This document shows positions 2,238-29,683 of a stretch of DNA of 32,000 nucleotides, one piece after another. Under the pieces are notes generated by a model. The model was given only the letters and a program-made list of their open reading frames with translations. It was not told the origin of the DNA and searched no databases. Position 1 is the first letter of the stretch, and each line of letters begins with the position of its first letter. Position numbers and translations under genes: made by a program. Origin of the DNA: an uncultured Actinomycetes bacterium (GTDB lineage: Bacteria > Actinomycetota > Actinomycetes > S36-B12 > CAIYMF01); contig CAWJMG010000003.1 of assembly GCA_963843975.1 (NCBI GenBank), positions 630,001 through 662,000 of the forward strand, written 5' to 3'.

Positions 2238-2267
2238 TTGACCCGTGATCTGCCACGTCCGTATCCT
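2238..2267 (+). promoter_or_regulatory. Candidate sigma-70-type promoter for rpsA (TTGACC - 18 nt - TATCCT)
   Basis: -35 TTGACC at 2238-2243 and -10 TATCCT (TAnnnT) at 2262-2267. This would give a leader of about 160 nt before the rpsA ATG at 2436. Confidence 0.35.
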
Positions 2268-2435
2268 GGCGTGTGCGTCGCGGGCCTGCGCGCGCCTCAT
2301 ACCGAGCAGGCACGTGCATGTCGTCCGGAGTGAACCCACGCCGCCGCCCTCACGGGCTGTTGCTCGGCCGCGCCTGATGGCGAGGGCCCGTCGTCGCATC
2401 CGTCACGACACCCATCCACCGGAGCTCCTTACTCC

Positions 2436-3902
2436 ATGACTGCCACCATCGACACCCCCGCGACGTTCCAGATCGCGGTCAACGACATCGGCGATGCCGA
2501 GGCTTTCGCCGCCGCTGTCGACGAGACCATCAAGTACTTCAACGACGGCGACATCGTCGAGGGCACCATCGTCAAGGTCGACCGTGACGAGGTCCTCCTC
2601 GACATCGGTTACAAGACCGAGGGCGTCATCCCCTCCCGTGAGCTGTCGATCAAGCACGACGTCGACCCCAACGAGGTCGTCAAGCTCGGCGATGTCGTCG
2701 AGGCCCTCGTCCTCCAGAAGGAGGACAAGGAAGGCCGTCTCATCCTGTCCAAGAAGCGCGCTCAGTACGAGCGTGCCTGGGGCACCATCGAGAAGGTCAA
2801 GGAAGAGGACGGCGTCGTCACCGGCACCGTCATCGAGGTCGTCAAGGGTGGTCTCATCCTGGACATCGGCCTCCGTGGCTTCCTCCCCGCCTCCCTCGTC
2901 GAGATGCGTCGCGTCCGCGACCTCCAGCCGTACGTCGGCAAGGAGCTCGAGGCCAAGATCATCGAGCTCGACAAGAACCGCAACAACGTGGTCCTGTCGC
3001 GCCGCGCCTGGCTCGAGCAGACCCAGTCCGAGGTCCGTCAGAACTTCCTCACGCAGCTGCAGAAGGGCCAGATCCGCTCCGGCGTCGTCTCGTCCATCGT
3101 CAACTTCGGCGCGTTCGTCGACCTCGGCGGCGTGGACGGTCTCGTCCACGTGTCCGAGCTCTCGTGGAAGCACATCGACCACCCGTCCGAGGTCGTCGAG
3201 GTCGGCACCGAGGTCACCGTCGAGGTGCTCGACGTCGACATGGACCGCGAGCGTGTCTCCCTGTCGCTGAAGGCGACGCAGGAAGACCCGTGGCAGCAGT
3301 TCGCCCGCACGCACCAGATCGGCCAGGTCGTCCCCGGCAAGGTCACCAAGCTGGTGCCGTTCGGCGCGTTCGTTCGTGTCGAGGAGGGCATCGAGGGCCT
3401 GGTCCACATCTCCGAGCTGGCCGAGCGCCACGTGGAGCTGCCGGAGCAGGTCGTCACCGTGGGCAGCGACATCTTCGTCAAGGTCATCGACATCGACCTC
3501 GAGCGTCGCCGCATCTCGCTGTCGCTCAAGCAGGCCTCCGAGGGCATCTCGGGCGCCGACGACGAGCACTTCGACCCGGCGCTCTACGGCATGGCTGCGA
3601 CCTACGACGAGGCCGGCGCCTACGTGTACCCCGAGGGCTTCGACCCGGAGACGGGCGAGTGGCTCCCGGGCCACGAGGCCGCCCAGGCCGAGTGGGAGCG
3701 CCAGTACGCCGAGGCGCACTCCCGTTGGGAGTCGCACAAGAAGCAGGTCGACGAGCAGCGCAAGGCTGACGCCGAGGCCGGGGTCGCCACCGACGCCGAG
3801 TCCGGCACGCAGTCGTACGCCTCGCCCGCCCCCGAGGCCGCCGGCACGCTGGCGACCGACGAGGCGCTGCAGGCGCTGCGCGACAAGCTCACCGGCGCCT
3901 GA
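2436..3902 (+). CDS. rpsA: 30S ribosomal protein S1
   Basis: 488 aa with four repeated S1 domains (e.g. 'GTIVKVDRDEVLLDIG', 'GTVIEVVKGGLILDIG', 'GVVSSIVNFGAFVDLG', 'GKVTKLVPFGAFVRV') plus an acidic C-terminal tail. GGAGC lies upstream of the ATG. Confidence 0.97.
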   Translation: MTATIDTPATFQIAVNDIGDAEAFAAAVDETIKYFNDGDIVEGTIVKVDRDEVLLDIGYKTEGVIPSRELSIKHDVDPNEVVKLGDVVEALVLQKEDKEGRLILSKKRAQYERAWGTIEKVKEEDGVVTGTVIEVVKGGLILDIGLRGFLPASLVEMRRVRDLQPYVGKELEAKIIELDKNRNNVVLSRRAWLEQTQSEVRQNFLTQLQKGQIRSGVVSSIVNFGAFVDLGGVDGLVHVSELSWKHIDHPSEVVEVGTEVTVEVLDVDMDRERVSLSLKATQEDPWQQFARTHQIGQVVPGKVTKLVPFGAFVRVEEGIEGLVHISELAERHVELPEQVVTVGSDIFVKVIDIDLERRRISLSLKQASEGISGADDEHFDPALYGMAATYDEAGAYVYPEGFDPETGEWLPGHEAAQAEWERQYAEAHSRWESHKKQVDEQRKADAEAGVATDAESGTQSYASPAPEAAGTLATDEALQALRDKLTGA

Positions 3903-3941
3903 GCCACCGGCTCCCGGCGCTGATCGGCTGATCAGCACGAC

Positions 3942-3980
3942 ACGAAGCCCCCCGTGACCGCGAGGTCCGGGGGGCTTCGT
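3942..3980 (+). terminator. rpsA stem-loop terminator
   Basis: 12-bp perfect stem ACGAAGCCCCCC (3942-3953) / GGGGGGCTTCGT (3969-3980) with a 15-nt loop, 40 nt after the rpsA stop. Confidence 0.6.
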
Positions 3981-4004
3981 ACGTCCGGCGCTAGATTCAG
4001 CCGC

Positions 4005-4601
4005 ATGAAGATCGGTCTGACGGGTGCAATCGGCGCCGGAAAATCTGCGGTGTCCGTGCGCTTCGCCCACCATGGCGCTGTGATCGTGGACGCCGACACG
4101 ATCGCCCGCGAGGTGGTCGAACCCGGCACGCCTGGTCTGTCGGCCATCACGGCGGAGTTCGGGCGCGACATCCTCTCCGCCGACGGCACCCTCGACCGAG
4201 CCGCGCTCGCCAAGATCGTGTTCTCCGACCCGGAGCGCCGCGCGGCCCTGGAGCGGATCGTTCACCCGCTCGTCGCACTGCGCTCGGGCCAGATCATCGC
4301 CGCGGCCCCGCCGCAGGCGGTCGTGGTCTACGACGTCCCCCTGCTCGCCGAGCTCGTCGTCAAGGGTCAGCGCACCACGGACGAGTACGACCACGTGGTG
4401 GTCGTCGAGGCTCCCGTGGAGACTCGGATCCCGCGGCTCGTGGCGCGCGGCCTGCCCGACTGGGACGCCGAGGCACGCATCGCCTCGCAGTGCACGGACG
4501 AGGAGCGCCGGGCGATCGCCGACCATGTCATCGTGAACGACGGCACGCTCGCGGAGCTCGACGCCCAGGTGGACGCCCTCTGGGAGCGCCTCACCGCCTG
4601 A
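4005..4601 (+). CDS. coaE: Dephospho-CoA kinase
   Basis: N-terminal P-loop '[14 protein letters not shown]' and 'IVHPLV'. It occupies the conserved position after rpsA. The start is moved to ATG 4005 (the track ORF starts at 3954, inside the terminator hairpin). Confidence 0.9.
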
Positions 4602-4634
4602 TCCCGCTACGCCCGCCGTGAACCGGCGGGTGGT

Positions 4635-4656
4635 TGTCGGTGGTCTCTCGTACGGT
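4635..4656 (+). promoter_or_regulatory. RecA-independent (RecA-NDp / PafBC-type) DNA-damage promoter of uvrB
   Basis: TGTCGGTG (4635-4642), an 8-nt spacer GTCTCTCG, then TACGGT (4651-4656). This matches tTGTCRgtg-N8-TAnnnT exactly. The -10 ends 6 nt before ATG 4663. Confidence 0.65.
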
Positions 4657-4662
4657 GGCTGC

Positions 4663-6774
4663 ATGGCCCGCCCTGTCACCGACCTCCAGCGCACCGTCGC
4701 GCCGTTCGAGGTCATCTCCGACTACGTCCCGTCCGGCGACCAGCCCGCCGCCATCGCCGAGATCGCCGCGCGCATCGAATCGGGGGCGCAGGACGTCGTG
4801 CTCCTCGGAGCGACCGGCACGGGCAAGTCGGCCACCACCGCCTGGCTGATCGAGAAGCTGCAGCGACCCACGCTCGTGATGGCGCCCAACAAGACCCTCG
4901 CCGCGCAGCTCGCGAACGAGTTCCGTGAGCTGCTTCCCAACAACGCCGTCGAGTACTTCGTCAGCTACTACGACTACTACCAGCCCGAGGCGTACATCCC
5001 GCAGTCGGACACCTACATCGAGAAGGACTCCTCGATCAACGAGGAGGTCGAGCGGCTGCGCCACTCGGCCACCAACTCCCTGCTCACCCGCCGCGACGTC
5101 ATCGTGGTCGCGTCGGTGTCGTGCATCTACGGCCTGGGCACGCCGCAGGAGTATGTCGACCGCATGGCCCGCCTCAAGGTCGGGCAGGAGTGGAACCGCG
5201 ACGACCTGCTCCGCCGGCTGGTGTCCATCCAGTACACGCGCAACGACCTCGCCTTCACGCGCGGCACCTTCCGCGTCCGCGGCGACACGATCGAGATCTT
5301 CCCGGTCTACGAGGAGCACCCCGTCCGGATCGAGATGTTCGGCGACGAGGTCGAGCGGCTCATGACCCTGCACCCGGTCACGGGCGAGATCCTCACGGAC
5401 GACCAGGAGCTCTACATCTTCCCGGCCACGCACTACGTCGCCGGGCCCGAGCGCATGGAGCGGGCCATCGGAGGCATCGAGGCCGAGCTCGAGACACGCC
5501 TCGCGGAGCTCGAGAAGCAGGGCAACCTGCTCGAGGCGCAGCGCCTGCGCATGCGCACCACCTACGACCTCGAGATGATGCGCCAGGTCGGCTTCTGCTC
5601 CGGCATCGAGAACTACAGCCGCCACATCGACGGCCGCGAGGCCGGCACGGCACCGCACTGCCTGCTCGACTACTTCCCCGAGGACTTCCTGCTCGTCATC
5701 GACGAGTCGCACGTCACCGTGCCCCAGATCGGCTCGATGTACGAGGGCGACATGAGCCGCAAGCGCACGCTCGTCGAGCACGGTTTCCGCCTCCCGAGCG
5801 CGATGGACAACCGTCCGCTCAAGTGGGAGGAGTTCCTCGAGCGCGTGGGGCAGACCGTCTACCTGTCGGCGACGCCGGGCAAGTACGAGCTGTCGCGCGT
5901 CGACGACGACGTCGTCGAGCAGGTCATCCGCCCGACCGGCCTGGTCGACCCCGAGGTCATCGTGAAGCCCACCAAGGGTCAGATCGACGACCTCATGGGT
6001 GAGATCAAGCTGCGCACGGACAAGGACGAGCGCGTGCTCGTCACCACGCTGACCAAGAAGATGGCCGAGGACCTCACCGACTACCTTCTCGAGCAGGGGA
6101 TCCGGGTGCGCTACCTGCACTCGGAGGTCGACACCCTGCGGCGGATCGAGCTCCTGCGCGAGCTGAGGCTCGGGCTCTACGACGTCCTGGTCGGCATCAA
6201 CCTCCTGCGCGAGGGGCTCGACCTCCCCGAGGTGTCGCTCGTGGCCATCCTCGACGCCGACAAGGAGGGGTTCCTGCGCTCGGGCACATCGCTGATCCAG
6301 ACGATCGGTCGCGCCGCCCGCAACGTCAGCGGCCAGGTGCACATGTACGCCGACACCATCACGCCGTCGATGGCCAAGGCCATCGACGAGACCAACCGTC
6401 GTCGCGCCAAGCAGGTGGCCTACAACGTGGCCCACGGCGTCGACCCGACCCCGCTGCGCAAGAAGATCCAGGACATCAGCGACCTCATCACGCGCGAGGA
6501 CGCCGACACCGAGGAGCTGCTGGGCGGATCCGGCCGCACGCAGTCCCGGGGCAAGGCGCCGGTCCCGGGCATGGGATCAGCGCGCGGGGGAGCGGGCGGG
6601 CTCGACGTCAGCGGCATGCCGGCGCGCGAGCTGGCCGAGCTCATCGGCGAGCTCACCGACCAGATGCACGCGGCAGCCGCCGAGCTGCAGTTCGAGGTGG
6701 CCGCCCGGCTGCGCGACGAGGTGTCCGACCTCAAGAAGGAGCTCCGGCAGATGCAGGCGGCCGGGCACGCGTAG
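4663..6774 (+). CDS. uvrB: Excinuclease ABC subunit B
   Basis: Helicase motifs 'GATGTGKS' and 'VIDESHVT', a '[11 protein letters not shown]' motif, and a C-terminal UVR domain '[14 protein letters not shown]'. The start is at ATG 4663 ([10 protein letters not shown]...), supported by the promoter geometry. Confidence 0.97.
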
Positions 6775-21710: not shown

Positions 21711-23663
21711 GTGGCGGACCCAGCGACCTACCGGCCGGCGCCGGGCGAGATCCCAGACTCGCCCGGCGTCTACCGGTTCCGCGACCAGCACGGCCGGGTC
21801 GTCTACGTGGGCAAGGCCAAGAGCCTGCGCAGCCGGCTGGGCTCGTACTTCCAGGACCTCTCCGCGCTGCACGTGCGCACCCAGGCGATGGTCACCACGG
21901 CCGCGTCGGTCGACTGGGTCACCGTCGACACCGAGGTCGAGGCGCTGCAGCTCGAGTACTCCTGGATCAAGGAGTACGACCCGCGGTTCAACGTCCGCTA
22001 CCGCGACGACAAGAGCTATCCGTACCTCGCCGTCACTCTCGACGAGGAGTTCCCGCGTATCACCGTCATGCGCGGAGCCAAGCGCAAGGGCGTGCGCTAC
22101 TTCGGCCCCTACGCCCATGCCTGGGCCATCCGCGAGACTGTCGACCTCCTGCTGCGCGTCTTCCCGGCGCGCACCTGCAGTGCGGGCCTGTTCAAGCGGC
22201 ACGGTCAGATCGGTCGCCCCTGCCTGCTGGGCTACATCGGCAAGTGCTCCGCCCCGTGCATCGGGCGGGTGGACGCCGAGGAGCACCGGCGCATCGTCGA
22301 GGACTTCTGCGCGTTCCTGTCGGGGCAGACCGCGGCGTACACCAAGCGGGTCGAGCGCGAGATGAAGGCGGCCGCCGCCGAGCTCGACTACGAGCGGGCC
22401 GCTCGGCTGCGCGACGACCTGCGGGCGTTGGAGCGTGCCCTCGAGAAGAGCGCCGTCGTGCTGGGCGACGGCACGGACGCCGACGTCATCGGGCTCGCCG
22501 ACGACGAGCTCGAGTCGGCCGTCCAGGTCTTCCACGTGCGCGGCGGACGCATCCGCGGCCAGCGGGGGTTCGTGGTCGAGAAGGTCGAGGACCTCACCAC
22601 CGGCGACCTCATCGAGCACCTGCTGCAGCAGCTGTACGGCGACCAGAACCCCGAGGCGGTGCCGCGGGAGGTGCTCGTCCCGGTGCTGCCGCCGGACCCG
22701 GAGCTGACCACCGCCTGGCTCTCGGACCTCCGCGGCAGCCACGTCGACCTACGCGTACCTCAGCGAGGCGACAAGCGCGACCTGCTCGAGACGGTCACGC
22801 GCAACGCCGGCCAGTCGCTCGCCCTGCACAAGACCCGGCGCGGGGGAGACCTCACCTCGCGCAGCCTCGCCCTCGAGGAGCTGCAGGAGGCGCTCGGGCT
22901 GCCTGAGGCGCCGCTGCGCATCGAGTGCATCGACGTCAGCCACCTGCAGGGCACCGACGTCGTCGCCTCGCTGGTCGTGTTCGAGGACGGGCTCGCACGC
23001 AAGTCCGAGTACCGCCGCTTCGCCATCCGGGGCGCCGCCGGCGACGGCATCAGCGACGACACCCGCTCGATCGCCGAGGTCGTCACGCGGCGGTTCAAGC
23101 GCCTCGCCGAGGAGCAGGCCTCGGTGACCGACGACGGGCTGCCGGGCATCGACCCGACCACCGGGCGGCCGCGCAAGTTCTCCTATCCGCCCAACCTGCT
23201 CGTGGTCGACGGCGGCCAGCCCCAGGTCGAGGCGGCGCAGGCCGCGTTGTCCGAGATCGGCGTGACCGACGTCGCCGTCGTGGGCCTCGCCAAGCGCCTG
23301 GAGGAGGTGTGGGTGCCGGGGGATCCCGACCCCGTCATCCTCCCGCGCACGAGCGAGGGCCTCTACCTCCTGCAGCGCGTGCGCGACGAGGCGCACCGGT
23401 TCGCCATCACCTACCAGCGGCAGAAGCGCGGCAAGCGCATGGTCGAGTCGATCCTCGACGACGTCCCCGGGCTGGGGGAGGCGCGCAAGAAGGCGCTGCT
23501 GCGCCAGTTCACGTCGCTCAAGCGGCTGCGTGCCGCCACGGCTGACGAGCTCGCGACCGTGCCGGGCATCGGCCCGACGCTCGCCCAGGCCGTCGTCGAG
23601 GCCCTCGCCGCCGATGCCCCTACGCCGGCCGTCAACACCGCAACCGGCGAGATCGTCGACTGA
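21711..23663 (+). CDS. uvrC: Excinuclease ABC subunit C
   Basis: GIY-YIG N-terminus '[26 protein letters not shown]', UVR domain '[16 protein letters not shown]', and a C-terminal (HhH)2 '[16 protein letters not shown]...[12 protein letters not shown]'. Confidence 0.97.
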
Positions 23664-24024: not shown

Positions 24025-24891
24025 GTGGTGGATCCGGCGTTCGAGCTCGTGCTCGTCACCGGCATGTCCGGGGCGGGCCGCTCCACGGCCGCACGCGCGC
24101 TCGAGGACCTGGGCTGGTTCGTCATCGACAACCTTCCGCCCGAGCTGCTCGCCGCCGCCGTCGACCACGTCTCGGGATCGCCCGACGTCGAGCGCCTGGC
24201 CGTCGTCGTCGACGTGCGCGGCGGCCGGATGTTCGAGGACCTCTCCCGCGCGCTCGACGACGTCCTCGCCTCCGGGCTCGACCTCCGGGTGCTCTTCCTC
24301 GAGGCCGGCGACAACGAGCTGGTGCGCCGGTTCGAGAGCAGCCGGCGTCCGCACCCGCTGCAGGGATCCGGTGGGATCCTCGACGGCCTCGTGCGCGAGC
24401 GGGCGACCCTCGGCGACCTCCGAGCGCGCGCCGACCTCGTGATCGACACCAGCTCGCTCAACGTGCACGACCTCCGGCGCAAGGTCGACGCCGCGTTCGG
24501 TGGCAGCGACCGCGTGCAGCTGCGCGCCACGGTCATGTCGTTCGGCTTCAAGTACGGCCTGCCGCTCGACGCCGACATCGTCAACGACGTGCGCTTCCTG
24601 CCCAACCCGTTCTGGGTGCCCGAGCTGCGCGAGCTATCGGGCCTGGACGCCGAGGTGAGCGACTACGTCACCGAGCTGCCCGAGGCCCGCGAGTTCCTCG
24701 ACCGCATGGCCGGGATGCTCGACCTCGTCTCCGACGGCTACCTGCGCGAGGGCAAGCGCTACGTCACGGTCGCCATCGGGTGCACGGGCGGGAAGCACCG
24801 CAGCGTCGCCATGGCCGAGAACCTCGCGGCCCGCCTCGTGAAGGTGGGTGTCGAGGTCCTCGTCGTGCACCGCGACCTGGGCCGCGAGTGA
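24025..24891 (+). CDS. rapZ: RNase adapter / nucleotide-binding protein RapZ (YvcJ)
   Basis: 'LVLVTGMSGAGRSTAARALEDLGWFVIDNLP', 'FGFKYG', 'DVRFLPNP' and 'IGCTGGKHRSV'. GAGAGGAAG lies before the GTG start. Confidence 0.95.
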   Translation: MVDPAFELVLVTGMSGAGRSTAARALEDLGWFVIDNLPPELLAAAVDHVSGSPDVERLAVVVDVRGGRMFEDLSRALDDVLASGLDLRVLFLEAGDNELVRRFESSRRPHPLQGSGGILDGLVRERATLGDLRARADLVIDTSSLNVHDLRRKVDAAFGGSDRVQLRATVMSFGFKYGLPLDADIVNDVRFLPNPFWVPELRELSGLDAEVSDYVTELPEAREFLDRMAGMLDLVSDGYLREGKRYVTVAIGCTGGKHRSVAMAENLAARLVKVGVEVLVVHRDLGRE

Positions 24892-25874
24892 GCGCCCCGC
24901 AGAGCGGCCCGGCCGGCCGCCGCGCCCCTAGAGCCACCGGTCCGCGCGTCGTCGCGCTCGGCGGCGGGCACGGTCTCGCCGCCAGTCTGCGCGCGTTGCG
25001 ACGCGTCACGGACGACGTCACCGCGATCGTGGCGGTGTCCGACGACGGTGGCTCGAGCGGGCGGCTGCGCGAGGAGTTCGACGTCGTACCCCCGGGTGAC
25101 TTGCGGATGGCTCTTGCCGCGCTCTGCGGCGACGACAGCTGGGGCCGCACGTGGAGCCGCGTGGTGCAGCACCGGTTCACCGGCACCGGGCCGCTCGCCG
25201 GACACTCGCTCGGCAACCTGCTCATCACGGCGCTGTGGGAGGAGACCGGCGACATCGTCACCGGCCTCGACTGGGTCGGTGCCCTGCTCGGCGCGCACGG
25301 CCGCGTGCTGCCCGTCGCGACGGTGCCGCTCGAGGTCGTGGCCGACGTCCGCGGCCTGCACCCGGAGGATCCGTCGATCCTCGAACGGGTCATCGGCCAG
25401 GTCTCGGTCGCGACGACCCGCGGCGAGGTGGTGCGCCTGCACATCGAGCCCCGCGAGGCGCCGGCGTGCCCCGAGGCCGTCAAGGCGATCGGCGAGGCTG
25501 ATGCTGTGCTGCTCGGTCCAGGCTCATGGTTCACCAGCGTCCTGGCGCCGCTGCAGGTGAGGGGGATCGGCCAGGCTGTCGCCCGCACCCCCGGTCGCGT
25601 GGTCGTCGTGCTCAACCTCGAGGCGCAGCCGGGGGAGACCGACGGCTTCAGCCCGCAGCGCCACCTCGAGGTGCTCAGCCGGCAGATGCCGTCGCTGCGC
25701 GTCGACACCGTGCTGGCCGACCCCGAGCATGTGCCGGATGTCGAGGCCCTCGCCTCAGCCGCCCGCGCTCTCGGCGCTCGTCTCGCCCTGGCCCCGGTCG
25801 CCTCGCGCGACGGCTCGCCGCGCCACGACGTGGACCTCCTCGCCTCAGCCCTGGGTGGCGTTCTCACCCCGTAA
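24888..25874 (+). CDS. yvcK: YvcK/CuvA-family (CofD-like, 2-phospho-L-lactate-transferase fold) gluconeogenesis / cell-shape factor
   Basis: 'VVALGGGHGLAASLRALR', 'TAIVAVSDDGGSSGRLR', 'PPGDLR', 'GHSLGNLLI' and 'LGPGSWFTSV'. The GTG start overlaps the rapZ stop (GTGA at 24888-24891). Confidence 0.93.
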   Translation: MSAPQSGPAGRRAPRATGPRVVALGGGHGLAASLRALRRVTDDVTAIVAVSDDGGSSGRLREEFDVVPPGDLRMALAALCGDDSWGRTWSRVVQHRFTGTGPLAGHSLGNLLITALWEETGDIVTGLDWVGALLGAHGRVLPVATVPLEVVADVRGLHPEDPSILERVIGQVSVATTRGEVVRLHIEPREAPACPEAVKAIGEADAVLLGPGSWFTSVLAPLQVRGIGQAVARTPGRVVVVLNLEAQPGETDGFSPQRHLEVLSRQMPSLRVDTVLADPEHVPDVEALASAARALGARLALAPVASRDGSPRHDVDLLASALGGVLTP

Positions 25875-25916
25875 CGCCACACGACAACCCGCCCAATATC
25901 CGGCACTATCGCTCGG

Positions 25917-26207
25917 GTGAGTGAGCAGCGGCCCTACGAGTACGTCGCATGGATTCGCGACAACCGGCTGGTGGAAGACGACCAGGATCGGGAGTGGCCC
26001 GCTGTCTTCATCGTGACGGCGCTCTCGGCCACGGAAGCACAGGCGTGGGGCGATCACCTATCGGCGGGGCGCTTCTCGCCGGGTCATCCCGAGGAGTTCA
26101 GTCACTCGGTCGTCCGACCTGCCAGCGACTCGACGATCCCCAACCTGGCGGACCTCCCTGTGATCCCCTACGGCTACGAGGCGTCGGCTGCCGAGGTCGG
26201 TTGGTAG
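25917..26207 (+). CDS. Hypothetical acidic 96-aa protein
   Basis: GTG start. MSEQRPYEYVAWIRDNRLVEDDQDREWPAVFIVTALSATEAQAWGDHLS... has a balanced, protein-like composition (W/Y/F/E/D), unlike the alternative frames. No family was recognised. Confidence 0.5.
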   Translation: MSEQRPYEYVAWIRDNRLVEDDQDREWPAVFIVTALSATEAQAWGDHLSAGRFSPGHPEEFSHSVVRPASDSTIPNLADLPVIPYGYEASAAEVGW

Positions 26208-26288
26208 CGCCTATGTGCCGATAGCGCTCGCCCCTCGCGTAGCTAAGCGGCATCCTCGTCCCCATGGATCAGGCGGCGCCTGCCGGCG

Positions 26289-26597
26289 ATGGAACGGCCC
26301 GTGAGACGACGATCTGGGTGGGTCGGGTCGCTCGCTTCACCGTCTCGGTCCCGGAAGCTTGGCCAGCCGGATGTGGCCCTTGCCCTGTTGACCTCGGACG
26401 GGCGAACCGTCGAACTCGAGTTCCTCGGGGTTATCGCTCTGGAAGTCCACGACTTCATGACCGGGTGGCCGATGACCCTGCAGATCACCGATCGCTCGCT
26501 CGATGGCTGGGAACGAGCCGACTTCGAGGTTTCCGACGCAGAGGAAGGCACCCTGCGCTTCCGGTGCGCCGAGGTCCGCTCGTCCATGACGGGCTAG
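26289..26597 (+). CDS. Small immunity-protein-like hypothetical (start uncertain, possibly frameshifted)
   Basis: The C-terminal 75 aa, 'VALALLTSDGRTVELEFLGVIALEVHDFMTGWPMTLQITDRSLDGWERADFEVSDAEEGTLRFRCAEVRS', look like a genuine beta-rich protein. The first 28 codons are Arg/Ser-rich. Alternative starts are GTG 26373, or ATG 26264 in another frame. Confidence 0.5.
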   Translation: MERPVRRRSGWVGSLASPSRSRKLGQPDVALALLTSDGRTVELEFLGVIALEVHDFMTGWPMTLQITDRSLDGWERADFEVSDAEEGTLRFRCAEVRSSMTG

Positions 26598-26612
26598 AAG
26601 TGCCGTTATCGA

Positions 26613-28523
26613 TTGGGTTTCCCCGTGAGCGGAGAGATTCTCCGCGGGCTGATTTCGCTTGGGGCTGAACGGTTCTCGGTCTGGATGGCCTCTGGAGGCG
26701 CCGCACTGTCAGAGGTGGTCGGCAGACTTGTCCTCATCAGGTTCGGTGGTGGTGAGGAGGTGACCGTGGCCGCTACTGCTGCTTCCTTCGTCGATCTCGA
26801 CGAGGGCGTGCCGATGCCGGCGGGCTGGTCGCCATACCCCTCGCTGCTGGAGATCGCCGAGCACGAGGCGCGCATGGCCTCCCTGGGTTCGGGCGAGCGT
26901 GATGAGCTCCAGCACCCGGACGATGTGCTGGATCGGACGGACCTGTTCGTGGACCCGGTGGCGGCGCTGTCGCTGCTTGCGGGTGAGGGATCGGGTGCGA
27001 CCTCGTTCGACCTCGGCGTCCTCGAGGCGGTGGACCCGGCCGCGCTTTCGGAGCCGATGGACAAGCTCGCGGTGCTCAAGGGTTTGGACAAGATCGAAGG
27101 GCTGGTCGGGTCGCTGCGGATCCGCGCCCTCACCTCGCTCGCCGGCACCAAGCCGGGCGAGGCCCTGGTCGACGAGCTTCATCTCGAGCATGAGATCGCC
27201 GTCGCCCGGCGCACCTCGGACTACTCCGCGGGCAAGGCCCTGGATCTGGCGCGCACGATCACTGCAACGTTCCCGGAGTTCCTCGTCGCCCTTGGCGCCG
27301 GCCGGGTGTCGTGGTCGCATCTGGCCGTGCTGGTGGAGCGGACCCGGTTCGTGGAGAACCCCACCGCGCTCACGGAGATCGGCACCCGGGCGCTGGTCCG
27401 TGCGCTGACCCGGACCCCCGGACAGTTCGCACAGGAGGTCGAGAAGCTCGTAGCCCGGTTCGACCCTGACGCCGCCGCACGTCACCGCAAGGCCAAGAAG
27501 AAGGATCGCAAGGTCTGGGTCAAGCAGCTCGCCGACGGCATGGGCATGCTCGGCTACATCGACGAGTGGGCCGTGGTCAACGCCGTCTACGAGACCCTCG
27601 CCGCCGACGCCAAGGCCACGAAGAAGGCCCGCAAGGACAAGAAGGCGGGCACGAAGCACGGCAAGAAGGCCGCGACGCCGGGCGGCGACTTGGTCCCAGT
27701 CGCCGACCGCGAGGTCGACGTCGTCGAAAGCGACCCGAGCGCCCCCGGTCCGCTCGATGTCGTCGAGGACTCCACCAACGCCGACGCCGACAGCAGAGAC
27801 CTGCGGGACGAGGCCGTGCCGAACTCGGAGGAGTCGTCGGCGGACGCCGACCGCGCGGACGCGCTCGCCGCGCGGGTGCTGGGCGTGGTGCACGAGGACG
27901 GCTCGGTGACGTGGGATCGCGCAGCCTCGACGCAGGTGCGTACGAGCCTGGTCGTGGACCTCAACACCCTGCGCGGCGAGGCCGACGGGATCGGTCTGCT
28001 GGACGGCCAGCCGATCCCGGCGGAGATCGCCCGCGAGATCGCGGGCCGCACCCACTCGTGGCGGCGGTTCGTGACCGACCCCGTCGACGGGCACCTCATC
28101 GACCGCGGCACCGACGTCTATGTCGACCCGCACCTGCGCTCGTTCATCCTTGCCCGCGACATCTGCCGCAACCCCGTCCACCGGCACGCCCTGACCTCGA
28201 CGCGGCTGGAGATGGACCACGCCGAGGAGTTCCCCCACGGGCCCACCTCGGCACCGAACTGCGGCGCGCTGTGCCTCCCCTCCCATCAGCTCAAGACCGC
28301 CCGCAGGGTCGACATCACCGACTCGGCGGCCGACGGGTCCTGCACCTGGACCACCGACTGGGGCCAGGTCGTGCACATTCCGCCCCGACCGTTCCTCGAA
28401 CACCCCGACCCGCCCGCCACCGAGCAGCCGGAGCCCGCGCCACCCGACGCTGCCGGGCCGACCCAGCACGCCCCACCACCCGGGGACACCCCGCCACCGG
28501 ACGACGACCCGCCACCCTTCTGA
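26613..28523 (+). CDS. DUF222-domain HNH endonuclease (REP13E12 / '13E12 repeat' family)
   Basis: DUF222-like region '[39 protein letters not shown]...[16 protein letters not shown]...[25 protein letters not shown]...[22 protein letters not shown]'. C-terminal HNH region '[51 protein letters not shown]...[10 protein letters not shown]'. The start codon is uncertain (TTG 26613 or GTG 26625). Confidence 0.85.
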
Positions 28524-28565
28524 CCGCCCCCTCGACCACGGCTGCTCGCCGGACCGACCCCGCAC

Positions 28566-28604
28566 CCCCGGGGCACGGACCCGGCGTACAGCCATGCCCC
28601 GGGG
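28566..28604 (+). terminator. Stem-loop after the HNH gene
   Basis: 10-bp arms CCCCGGGGCA (28566-28575) / TGCCCCGGGG (28595-28604) with a 19-nt loop, 43 nt after the stop at 28523. Confidence 0.45.
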
Positions 28605-28699
28605 AGCGTCCGACGCGACCTGCTCGCTCGAGTTTCGGCAGCGTTTCCGGATCGGGGTCGGGGAGCGAGGTCGTTGACGTGGGTGGCAGGATGCCCGCC

Positions 28700-29683
28700 A
28701 TGGCAATGACGGCAGCGGTCAAGGACGAGCTCGCGCGTCTCAAGGTCACCAAGCCCTGCTGCCGCAAGGCCGAGGTCTCCGCGATCCTGCGCTTCGCCTC
28801 CGGGCTGCACATCGTGGGCGGCAAGATCGTGATCGAGGCCGACCTCGACACCGCCATCGCGGCGCGGCGCCTGCGTCGCGACATCAGCGAGGTCTTCGGT
28901 CACGCCAGCGAGATGGCCGTGATCCACCCGGGCGGCCTGCGCAAGGGCAACCGCTACCTCGTCCGAGTCCACGCCGATGGCGAGCAGCTCGCTCGTCAGA
29001 CCGGTCTCGTCGACGCCAGCGGCCGCCCCGCCCGCGGTCTCCCGACGTCCATCGTGAACGGTTCGCTCTGCGACTCCGAGGCCGCCTGGCGCGGCGCGTT
29101 CCTCGCTCACGGGTCCCTCACCGAGCCCGGACGCTCCTCCGCGCTCGAAGTGACGTGCCCGGGGCCCGAGGCTGCGCTCGCGCTGTCCGGCGCGGCCCGC
29201 CGCCTCGGGATCGCAGCCAAGCCCCGCGAGGTCCGCGGCGTCGACCGTGTCGTCATCCGAGACGGAGACGCCATCGCGGCCCTGCTCACGCGCCTGGGTG
29301 CGCACGAGTCGGTGCTTGCGTGGGAGGAGCGGCGCATGCGCCGCGAGGTCCGCGCCACCGCGAACCGTCTCGCCAACTTCGACGACGCCAACCTTCGCCG
29401 CTCGGCCCGTGCGGCTGTCGCGGCCGGTGCGCGCGTGCAGCGTGCCCTCGAGATCCTCGGTGACGAGGTGCCCGACCACCTGGCCGACGCCGGCAAGCTC
29501 CGGATGGAGCACCAGCAGGCCTCGCTCGAGGAGCTCGGCGCGCTGGCTGACCCGCCCATGACCAAGGACGCGATCGCCGGCCGCATCCGCCGCCTGCTCG
29601 CCCTCGCCGACAAGCGGGCCCAGGAGCTCGGCATCCCCGACACCGAGGCCGGGATCCCGGCCGACCTGGTGGACGCCGACTAA
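28700..29683 (+). CDS. whiA: DNA-binding sporulation / cell-division regulator WhiA
   Basis: '[39 protein letters not shown]' is the canonical WhiA N-terminus. It also has degenerate LAGLIDADG-type domains and a C-terminal HTH. The start is set at ATG 28700. Confidence 0.95.

Follow-up and report, generated by a model that had tools for sequence, protein, structure and literature searches.

The REP13E12 (13E12) repeat family of Mycobacterium tuberculosis combines DUF222 with HNH (Gordon et al. 1999, as cited in PMC10589994), and 13E12 genes are under LexA and RecA_NDp control (PMC3381160). The rAID-1 clusters of Bacteroidales are recombinase-associated acquired interbacterial defence gene clusters (Ross et al., bioRxiv 10.1101/471110). 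They are recognised by a recombinase that shares at least 44% identity with the one of rAID-1 in B. fragilis (bioRxiv 10.1101/471110). Integrons and CALINs contain arrays of single-gene cassettes, and a search by Cury et al. 2016 (PMC4889954) found no complete integron in Actinobacteria.

We analysed a window of 32,000 nucleotides from the genome of an uncultured Actinomycetes bacterium, in which three genes lie between yvcK and whiA. The largest of them resembles REP13E12. It encodes DUF222 followed by a degenerate C-terminal HNH-type motif, it is multicopy with paralogues behind predicted LexA boxes or RecA-NDp-type promoters, and it is inserted between housekeeping genes without a transposase. 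Unlike in REP13E12, the zinc knuckle of the clade to which it belongs is altered (CxxxxH ... CxxSH) and the protein ends in an SSB-like tail. An 18-nt cassette motif stands at the head of the gene unit, and exchangeable small-gene cassettes lie beside it.

For the cassette system itself, the rAID-1 arrays of Bacteroidales and the integrons appear to be the closest analogues. As in rAID-1, a tyrosine recombinase, here Xer-like, adjoins co-directional small-gene arrays (in congeners; this genome has no such recombinase), intergenic sequences are repetitive, GC is below that of the host and some of the cargo matches putative immunity families (here SUKH-1, Barstar and WapI-like). Unlike rAID-1, the system belongs to the phylum Actinomycetota, with another repeat and another recombinase lineage. 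Its arrays run outward on both sides of the recombinase, and DUF222-HNH genes are frequent members or neighbours.

With integrons and CALINs (Cury et al. 2016, PMC4889954) the system shares single-gene cassettes that recur in different contexts and stand in direct arrays (3-8 sites) with a recombination-site-like repeat between them. At one locus (G049), array and tyrosine recombinase point away from each other, as in integrons. Recombinase-less arrays occur elsewhere in the genomes, as in CALINs. Unlike in integrons, the recombinase of congeners is not IntI (TIGR02249 68 vs 265 bits), and a search at E <= 1e-40 found none in this insert or genome. The motif lacks the R/L boxes (GTTRRRY) of attC, and each cassette carries most of the site at its 5' end. 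We found no description of such a system, an 18-base site with an Xer-like recombinase, for Actinomycetota.

A composite insertion between yvcK and whiA

The spacer between yvcK and whiA is normally short. The matches to the two genes are about 50-220 bp apart in about 20 genomes of the same genus and about 17-58 bp apart in 13 genomes from other families of the order. The spacer is occupied in three genomes: ours (2.8 kb; G000), G007 (3.6 kb) and G008 (3.1 kb). Hence, the initial annotation was right to see an insertion in an otherwise tight junction, and the three genes are not carried at this site by all related genera, which would have spoken for an old resident. The empty site that it suggested looking for in relatives exists in G021 and G020. 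Alignment to these two genomes leaves the left edge at 25875 and moves the right edge from 28699 to 28631. Thus, the insertion spans 25875-28631; it is composite and specific to this lineage (Table 1). The overlap of rapZ and yvcK (GTGA) was also described correctly; the yvcK start overlaps the rapZ stop.

The insert carries no integrase or transposase domain in its three ORFs (Pfam) and no target-site duplication, as had been noted: the sole shared 7-mer lies away from the junctions. A longer spacer in G021 was considered as the scar of a DUF222 leader and rejected, since the BLAST matches are at chance level. An Rfam scan of 25700-28800 (E <= 1) returned a single sub-threshold Guanidine-II match, which is a chance match.

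Table 1. Features of the occupied yvcK-whiA junction and its flanks (positions in the window)
Feature	Position	Strand	Remarks
rapZ	24025-24891		gene order
yvcK (CofD-family), left flank	24888-25874	+	PF01933, E 9.5e-72
Leftmost 18 nt of insert, CGCCACACGACAACCCGC	25875-25892	+	common to G007, absent in empty-site genomes; from junction alignments
Degenerate half-site ATCCGGCACTATCGCTCG	25898-25915	+	abuts ORF1 start; inverted core (CGGCAC) plus TATCGCTCG
ORF1, 96 aa	25917-26207	+	acidic, pI 4.4; no Pfam/NCBIfam family
Cassette head motif 1, ATGTGCCGATAGCGCTCG	26213-26230	+	31.6 bits; 5 nt past ORF1 stop
ORF2 cassette gene	26264-26597	+	ATG 26264 (MDQ...); listed ORF 26289-26597 reached by 1-nt shift
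Cassette head motif 2, AAGTGCCGTTATCGATTG	26598-26615	+	27.9 bits; starts at first base after ORF2 stop; heads DUF222-HNH unit
Conserved leader box GATTTCGCTTGGGGCTGAACGG	26651-26672	+	in 5/7 paralogues of the clade
Putative RecA-NDp (PafBC)-like promoter	26707-26728	+	TGTCAG-N10-CAGACT; position kept in four paralogues
DUF222-HNH gene, 585 aa	26766-28523	+	GTG start after RBS GGAGGTGACC at 26756; HNH region 28164-28298
3' trailer hairpin, then CATGCCCC	28538-28593	+	homologous in paralogues
Right end of insert	28594-28631	+	common to G007, absent at empty sites
Native whiA upstream region, GGTCGTTGACGYGGGTGGCAGGATGC, 68 nt	28632-28699	+	conserved across genus, present in empty-site genomes
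whiA, right flank	28700-29683	+	WhiA_N, LAGLIDADG_WhiA, HTH_WhiA domains (Pfam)

The insertion is not very recent. G007 shares both junctions and the nuclease gene with our genome. The nucleotide identity of the nuclease gene is 86-87%, close to that of the flanking genes (about 89%), so the nuclease gene is older than the split from G007. The DUF222-HNH unit would then already have been present in the common ancestor of the two genomes. Across rapZ-yvcK, our genome is 89% identical to G007 and 88% identical to G021. The insert of G008 in this spacer is an independent one, and its DUF222 gene has the reversed orientation.

The three genes had been taken for one block of unrelated genes. Instead, a stable DUF222-HNH core is joined to exchangeable cassettes. 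In G007 a DUF1254/DUF1214 gene stands in place of ORF1 and ORF2, and the cassettes of ORF1 and ORF2 are found elsewhere with other neighbours. The low GC content ascribed to the insertion holds for its left part; quantitative GC and GC3 analysis shows a mild deviation overall and a host-like nuclease gene. The GC content of the insert is 0.694 vs a genome mean of 0.716 (sd 0.024, windows of that size). The left cargo (25875-26597) has a GC content of 0.661, at about the 5th percentile, and low GC is limited to the left 0.9 kb. GC3 is 0.81-0.82 for ORF1 and ORF2 (13th-16th percentile among long ORFs) and 0.903 for the nuclease gene.

ORF1 belongs to a real family of small proteins, with homologues at 47-91% identity. 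Its cassette recurs in the contigs L046 (93%) and L047 (75%, downstream of another DUF222-HNH gene). L046 has the full head motif, which is missing here. What we find at its place is a half-site, where the homology to other ORF1 cassettes ends on the 5' side. As a motif copy this stretch stays under 9 bits; a better reading is the right-hand half-site left by a truncated head.

Copies of the ORF2 cassette, with different neighbours, occur in the metagenome contigs L026 (95% nt) and L027 (87% nt), and the homology spans exactly the segment between the motifs. ORF1 and ORF2 cassettes are thus each known from three contexts; they are the only two cassettes seen in more than one. As listed (102 aa), ORF2 is not an intact gene. 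By comparison with two homologues (110 aa, start MDQ..., pI 4.5) the frame starts at ATG 26264, and one extra A near 26356 (GGAAGCTT vs GGAGCTT) is either a frameshift or an assembly error. Searches of both ORFs against Pfam and NCBIfam up to E <= 10 gave nothing usable, and a reading of ORF2 as Imm50-like was not confirmed by these searches.

The core is the DUF222-HNH gene, for which GTG 26766 is most likely the start rather than TTG 26613. The DUF222 assignment is firm (PF02720, E 6.2e-15, 55.7 bits vs a cut-off of 24.4), and the HNH motif is degenerate. The HNH region reads CRNPVH...DH...N...CLPSHQLKT. Aligned with the paralogues, it retains D-H, N and the final H but has His and Ser in place of two Cys ligands. 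PF01844 (HNH) matches weakly (11.8 bits, E 0.28). Because of the altered zinc knuckle and this low score, the predicted nuclease activity is uncertain. A PDB sequence search with the nuclease returned no match. The C-terminal tail DDDPPPF (28500-28520) is similar to the tail of the genome's own SSB. The gene is multicopy and dispersed: there are 11 Pfam matches in the genome, 7 copies belong to this clade, and further copies lie at C3:462k, C3:1751k and C1:406k.

The paralogues have more in common than the gene. They share the leader, the RecA-NDp-like promoter, the RBS and the 3' hairpin. The candidate promoter has a non-canonical -10 (C in place of T1); the uvrA site in the window (18218) reads TGTCGG-N10-TAGCCT. 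Five of the nine LexA-box matches of the genome lie before DUF222 genes, and so do several TGTCRG-N10 promoters. The predicted damage-type control of the paralogues agrees with the LexA/RecA_NDp control of 13E12 genes (PMC3381160). A hairpin had been annotated at 28566-28604. A hairpin does exist, but the stable one is that at 28538-28593; it has no U-tract, and we found no canonical terminator.

Downstream of the insert, whiA probably always had its 68-nt upstream element, because these last 68 nt are native, conserved in the genus and also present in empty-site genomes. A -10-like CAGGAT lies at 28687-28692, 7 nt before the whiA ATG, and a putative whiA promoter of its own in this region is plausible.

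The 18-nt motif and its association with an Xer-like recombinase

The motif A-N-GTGCCG-N-TA-K-CG-M-TCG opens both the ORF2 cassette and the nuclease unit. Head motif 1 has an inverted partner, GCTAAGCGGCAT, at 26242-26253. The arrangement of head motif 2 is also found in G007, twice in G021 (C3 and C9) and at two other places in our genome (C3:462k and C3:1751k). In intact cassettes the motif begins 0-19 nt past the preceding stop codon, and the distance to the next start varies from about 20 to 300 nt.

Most motif copies of our genome lie near DUF222 genes. A PWM scan covering 8.4 Mb of its sequence (both strands) gave 12 hits of at least 20 bits, 10 of which lie within about 2 kb of DUF222-type genes. 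Direct arrays occur in relatives: G021:C3 has 7 copies followed by a DUF222 gene of the same clade, G019 has 3 copies behind a DUF222 gene, and G049 has 8 copies that are divergent from the recombinase. The empty sites and the G008 insert contain no copy of at least 9 bits. A strict 16-mer is only about 2-fold above its reversed control in the genus, and among 390 genomes of the order it is not above that control outside the genus (and a sister genus). Hence, we claim no wide distribution from the pattern alone.

Two candidate identities of the motif were not adopted. The case for an attC-like hairpin is weak: the inverted core follows downstream in about 12/27 sites vs about 23% expected, and most MFEs are within the shuffle range. 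A dif-like Xer site is a weak lead, since the candidate dif (C3:716570, TTATCCGATAA-TGAGCA-TTATGTAATGT) shares only the CCGATA core, about 7/12 positions, and has no counterpart of the XerD arm.

An Xer-like tyrosine recombinase of 303 aa, with alleles in G023 and G050 among others, is present in 9 of 27 congeners. Each of the seven full-length recombinase loci has the motif (at least 19 bits) facing outward within about 1 kb, which amounts to 11 hits in 33 kb vs about 0.1 expected. The same layout with a variant motif is found on a contig with a 74% identical recombinase. Of the more distant homologues (63-64% identity), one is accompanied by a single motif copy and another, in a plasmid/ICE-like context, by none. 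Long motif arrays stand beside the recombinase without any DUF222 gene within 10 kb. The recombinase scores 68 bits against TIGR02249 (IntI; cut-off 265), and its best NCBIfam matches are XerD and XerC, both below cut-off. About 25 cassettes were tested for cargo. They include SUKH-1, Barstar, DUF6228/WapI-like, DUF4288 and a weak DUF4926 match, and most have no family. In our genome and in G007, the cassette recombinase was not found in a search at E <= 1e-40.

How the insertion may have formed

We think it rather probable that the insertion is a composite of a stable DUF222-HNH unit and exchangeable cassettes from a genus-wide motif/recombinase cassette system. In this model the core would be one copy of a multicopy unit, consisting of head motif, leader with RecA-NDp-like promoter, RBS, ORF with SSB-like tail and 3' hairpin. 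The single-gene cassettes upstream, ORF1 with a truncated head and ORF2 with a frameshift, would be exchangeable. In the manner of integrons or rAID-1 arrays, the recombinase would excise and integrate cassettes at the motif; the copy before DUF222-HNH genes would serve as their docking point. Since our genome has no recombinase, its copy would be a frozen, decaying outpost. For whiA, transcription would probably start from the retained native 68-nt element. The genome comparisons establish the insertion itself, its composite make-up, the edges of the cassettes and the link of the motif to both the recombinase and DUF222 genes; the acting enzyme, the route of the first insertion and all expression are what we infer from the sequence.

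The motif-plus-recombinase system of congeners is a candidate for how the cassettes got here. Because neither our genome nor G007 has the recombinase, cassette exchange at this locus would be old, act in trans or depend on another enzyme. Recombination from motif to motif does not explain the first insertion: on its left side the insert begins with no more than a degenerate half-site, and neither the right end nor the empty sites have a motif. The independent insert of G008, with its reversed DUF222 gene and no motif, points to the nuclease gene and not the cassette system as the vehicle.

This brings up an alternative that we consider unlikely, a plain selfish DUF222-HNH (REP13E12-like) element. 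The nuclease would cut or nick a preferred target and repair would copy the gene with its neighbours. The motif would be the binding or cleavage site of the nuclease or the DUF222 domain, and the small genes would hitch-hike. Such an element could account for two independent DUF222-bearing inserts in one spacer of 80-220 bp (G000/G007 and G008), although among about 28 genomes this could be chance (rough estimate 5-10%). It also fits the position of the motif, 100-250 nt ahead of DUF222 genes that represent at least three subfamilies, and motifs being present here in a genome without a recombinase. It does not fit the long arrays at the recombinase that are far from any DUF222 gene, nor a DUF222 gene without motif in G008. 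The altered zinc knuckle and the low PF01844 score also speak against it. Alternatively, the motif may be a regulatory or REP-like intergenic repeat (promoter, operator or terminator) and the shuffling due to ordinary homologous recombination with no dedicated enzyme. We regard this as quite improbable. The motif is indeed short and strictly intergenic, its position after stop codons is fixed, enrichment of the strict pattern over the control is modest, and site-specific recombination is something we infer from sequence comparison. Yet an identity of 18 nt is too short for efficient RecA-dependent exchange, an oriented association with one recombinase family is not predicted, and the variable distance from motif to start is unlike that of a promoter or RBS element.

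Least credible, and by our estimate very improbable, is that the three genes are ancient residents lost in most relatives, or that faulty assembly of a metagenome-assembled genome created the junction. Our genome is about as far from G007 as from G021, so a single loss in G021 is conceivable. However, the short spacers in and outside the genus would need many independent precise deletions, and the empty sites largely refute an ancient resident. The genome is metagenome-derived and its nearest relative is labelled a MAG, but the same junctions occur in G007, whose assembly is independent, which argues against chimerism.

Returning to the composite insertion, a wider version of it is possible, and we put it forward tentatively. 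This lineage and relatives with a recombinase at least about 74% identical may run their own integron-like gene capture, with an Xer-like enzyme, an 18-nt site and single-gene cassettes, many of immunity type. DUF222-HNH genes would be cassettes in it or preferred docking points.

Implications for DUF222-HNH repeats and whiA

To our knowledge, few unexplained repeats of Actinomycetota, M. tuberculosis included, are as common as the DUF222-HNH (13E12) genes. The locus offers a clean comparison of occupied and empty sites at a well-known junction. This comparison defines the ends of the unit and a putative damage-type promoter. The SSB-like tail is a second concrete handle, here on a docking partner of the nuclease. 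The locus is also a natural experiment on the biology of whiA, which would here be uncoupled from yvcK read-through.

At this locus a DUF222-HNH gene travels with exchangeable cassettes, which are marked by a short site tightly linked to one family of Xer-like recombinases. If the recombinase moves the cassettes, the system would be an actinobacterial counterpart of integrons and rAID arrays. If true, this would connect cassette capture with the 13E12 repeats, and would do so in a phylum where Cury et al. 2016 (PMC4889954) found no complete integron.

The insert between yvcK and whiA

We placed yvcK and whiA in 40 related genomes, mostly MAGs. In other families of the order the matches to the two genes lie ~17-58 bp apart (13 genomes), and in ~20 genomes of the same genus ~50-220 bp apart. 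Kilobase spacing occurs in three genomes only: G000, which holds the window (2.8 kb), its nearest relative G007 (3.6 kb) and the congener G008 (3.1 kb). The insertion splitting yvcK from whiA that the initial annotation proposed is thus borne out by short spacers in relatives versus 2.8 kb here, and the rapZ/yvcK overlap (GTGA) is indeed seen.

Insert borders were determined by BLAST against fetched loci and by inspection of the junction sequences. Homology to the short, empty spacers of two congeners (G021 and G020) ends at the yvcK stop codon and restarts at 28632 (GTTTCGGCAGCGTTTCC...). Hence, the insert spans 25875-28631. The final 68 nt ahead of whiA are native and hold a genus-wide conserved block, GGTCGTTGACGYGGGTGGCAGGATGC, also present in empty-site genomes, with a -10-like CAGGAT 7 nt 5' of the whiA ATG. 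Because an independent assembly, that of G007 (labelled a Nanopelagicales MAG), has both junctions in common with the window, including 18 nt past the yvcK stop, an assembly artefact is excluded as the source of the insert.

The lower GC content noted at first is real but modest, and only the left cargo and the leader show it. The whole insert has a GC of 0.694 against 0.716 for the genome, ~0.9 sd low for windows of the same size. The left 723 bp reach 0.661 (~5th percentile) and the leader 0.607. Among 2479 long ORFs, GC3 is at the 13th-16th percentile for ORF1 and ORF2 (0.81-0.82) and at the 48th for the nuclease gene (0.903). Low GC alone would not prove foreign origin.

Features of the yvcK-whiA region (window coordinates)
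Feature	Position	Remark
uvrC	21711-23663	
rapZ	24025-24891	
yvcK	24888-25874	
ORF1 half-head	25898-25915	
ORF1	25917-26207	no family match in Pfam or NCBIfam
Motif copy 1	26213	5 nt past ORF1 stop
ORF2	26289-26597	as listed; no family match in Pfam or NCBIfam
Motif copy 2	26598	first base after ORF2 stop, 168 nt before nuclease start
Leader box	26651-26672	
Long DUF222 ORF	end at 28523	Pfam PF02720, E 6.2e-15
SSB-like tail	28500-28520	DDDPPPF
whiA	28700-29683	followed by a gap, then pgk

Cassettes and their motif

The nuclease gene of G007 shows 86-87% nucleotide identity to that of the window, compared with ~89% for rapZ-yvcK. At the place of ORF1 and ORF2, between the common 18 nt and the nuclease leader, G007 carries a 456-aa DUF1254/DUF1214 gene. 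The borders of the swap carry a repeated sequence with the consensus A-N-G-T-G-C-C-G-N-T-A-K-C-G-M-T-C-G (28 sites). ORF2 has two close 110-aa homologues on metagenome contigs, and the nucleotide homology of its cassette (95% and 87%) runs exactly from motif to motif, while the neighbours on both sides differ. Compared with these homologues, the ORF2 frame in the window is shifted by a single additional A near 26356. On one of the two contigs (L026), three small genes have a motif after each.

ORF1 homologues were found as well. In one of them (L046) the ORF1 cassette, 93% identical in nucleotides, starts with a complete head motif; 15 nt further on come an inverted core and TATCGCTCG. The window and a second locus (L047) retain only this second half of the head, inverted core plus TATCGCTCG, which in L047 comes after the 3' trailer of a different DUF222-HNH gene. 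G007 has a pair of head motifs shortly before its nuclease leader (L011, G007:C73, ~3849-3900, oriented). Spaced 34 nt apart, they flank a perfect GC hairpin, GCGCGCCGC-TTCG-GCGGCGCGC. The pair might represent an "empty cassette" or the footprint of an excision.

The nuclease unit and its putative control

The DUF222 assignment of the long ORF stands, and its HNH motif is degenerate (PF01844, 11.8 bits): D-H, N and the final H are kept and two zinc ligands are replaced. The gene is multicopy, with 11 PF02720 matches in G000 and more copies missed by the model. One clade, including the window copy, has seven members; the closest paralogues are at C3:1638k (60% aa) and C3:1195k (59% aa). Nucleotide homology to the paralogues covers 26643-28599, past both ends of the ORF. 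From their alignment we read the parts of a shared unit: a leader box GATTTCGCYTGGGGCTGAAC, a TGTCRG-N10-nAnnnT element, an RBS GGAGGTGACC followed by GTG or ATG, and a 3' trailer hairpin ending in CATGYCC. The conserved RBS and start codon make GTG 26766 the most likely nuclease start. A stable hairpin does precede whiA (fold z = -2.5), but it lies at 28538-28593 instead of 28566-28604 and lacks a U-tract. Searches gave neither a canonical terminator nor a sigma-70 promoter. The DUF222-HNH literature gives no mobility mechanism. Five paralogues, one of them LexA-type, keep the leader box at 35-95 nt before the promoter; it may serve as an operator or mark the end of an element.

All seven clade proteins end in D[D/E][I/P]PPF (other loci in G000: C1:74770, C1:208346, C3:1041752, C3:1195959, C3:1638323 and C3:2541945). 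The tip of the genome's own SSB is similar (..YDEPPF, C1:1348662-1349264). Among the 18,380 ORFs with 120 aa or more, only 10 have such an ending, seven being the clade nucleases and one the SSB. The resemblance suggests that the tail may mimic the SSB C-terminal tail, i.e., dock to SSB-partner proteins.

The spacing of TGTCRG-N10 matches the uvrA promoter in the window (TGTCGG-N10-TAGCCT) and 31 strict sites genome-wide. At the nuclease gene the -10 reads CAGACT. The relaxed pattern is frequent by chance, and conservation among paralogues is all that argues for a function of the element. Five of the nine G000 matches to the actinobacterial LexA box (TCGAAC-N4-GTWCKA) lie immediately ahead of DUF222-HNH genes: three other members of the clade and two additional DUF222 genes. 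Hence, over half of the SOS-type boxes would serve the DUF222-HNH family. Examples are C1:76359, C1:208410, C1:311714, C3:1697147 and C3:2543558, several placed as for leaderless transcripts. Most 13E12 genes of M. tuberculosis are LexA-bound or have a RecA_NDp promoter (PMC3381160), and RecA-NDp is the PafBC motif (PMC6789036). The LexA/RecA-NDp-like sites at DUF222 genes fit this published regulation.

A recombinase in congeners and the origin of the insert

A PWM of the motif gives 12 matches of at least 20 bits in G000, 10 of them within ~2 kb of DUF222-type genes; the remaining two, in coding sequence, look like chance. Among congeners, direct arrays are seen in G021, with seven copies followed by a same-clade DUF222 gene (contig C3; right flank syntenic with G000 C3:1195k), and in G019, where three copies follow a DUF222 gene. 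On contig C9 of G021, heads occur singly ahead of DUF222 genes.

Motif copies in G023 and G006 adjoin a tyrosine recombinase. Our genus search found this enzyme in 9 of 27 congeners and in neither G000 nor G007. Each of the seven full-length loci has, within ~1 kb, motif copies scoring 19 bits or more that always face away from the recombinase: 11 matches in 33 kb, where the G000 background (12 per 8.4 Mb) predicts ~0.1. In wider flanks, G049 has eight direct copies that begin 395 nt upstream of the recombinase and run divergently from it; G050 has four downstream. The enzyme scores ~115-119 bits against XerD/XerC models, far under their cut-offs, and 68 bits against the integron-integrase model (cut-off 265); it is Xer-like. 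The family is large in metagenomes. A contig with a 74%-identical recombinase repeats this layout, with outward-facing copies of a variant motif, AAGTGCCGTTA..., on both sides; at 63-64% identity the layout is not clearly seen, and outside the genus a strict 16-mer shows no enrichment. Most cargo proteins are orphans; the cargo includes SUKH-1, Barstar, DUF6228/WapI-like, DUF4288, UPF0158 and many small membrane proteins.

Right after the G023 recombinase (G023:C333, L031/L052) lies a family-less 246-aa ORF (L031 3422-4162) without a tblastn match in four other extended recombinase loci (G048, G049, two in G050). Outside the window, a candidate chromosomal dif, TTATCCGATAA-TGAGCA-TTATGTAATGT, is the sole such match in G000 (C3:716543-716570).

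Among described systems, the rAID-1 cluster comes closest. It is reported as limited to Bacteroidales and has a XerD-family recombinase, orphan immunity gene arrays, skewed GC and integron-like intergenic repeats (10.1101/471110). Integrons share the array logic, whereas integrase type and attC architecture differ; Cury et al. report no complete integron in Actinobacteria (PMC4889954). In the present system the site sits ahead of an uninterrupted nuclease gene, and the enzyme linked to the system belongs to the tyrosine recombinases. We infer the whole mechanism by comparison.

Simple site-by-site recombination does not account for the first insertion, because empty sites lack the motif, the insert has no target-site duplication (as first noted), its left end is a half-site and its right end has no motif. 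G008 carries an independent insert in the same spacer, starting directly at the yvcK stop, with a DUF222 gene in opposite orientation plus glyoxalase-like and YCII genes. It is ~3 kb long (L014, G008:C7:182500-190000, ~2260-5310) and unrelated to the G000 insert; the assembly has many frameshifts. Two insertion events at one spacer could be chance. Because the G008 insert has a DUF222 gene and no motif, it hints that the nuclease gene may be the pioneer, and that cassettes would dock later at its head motif.
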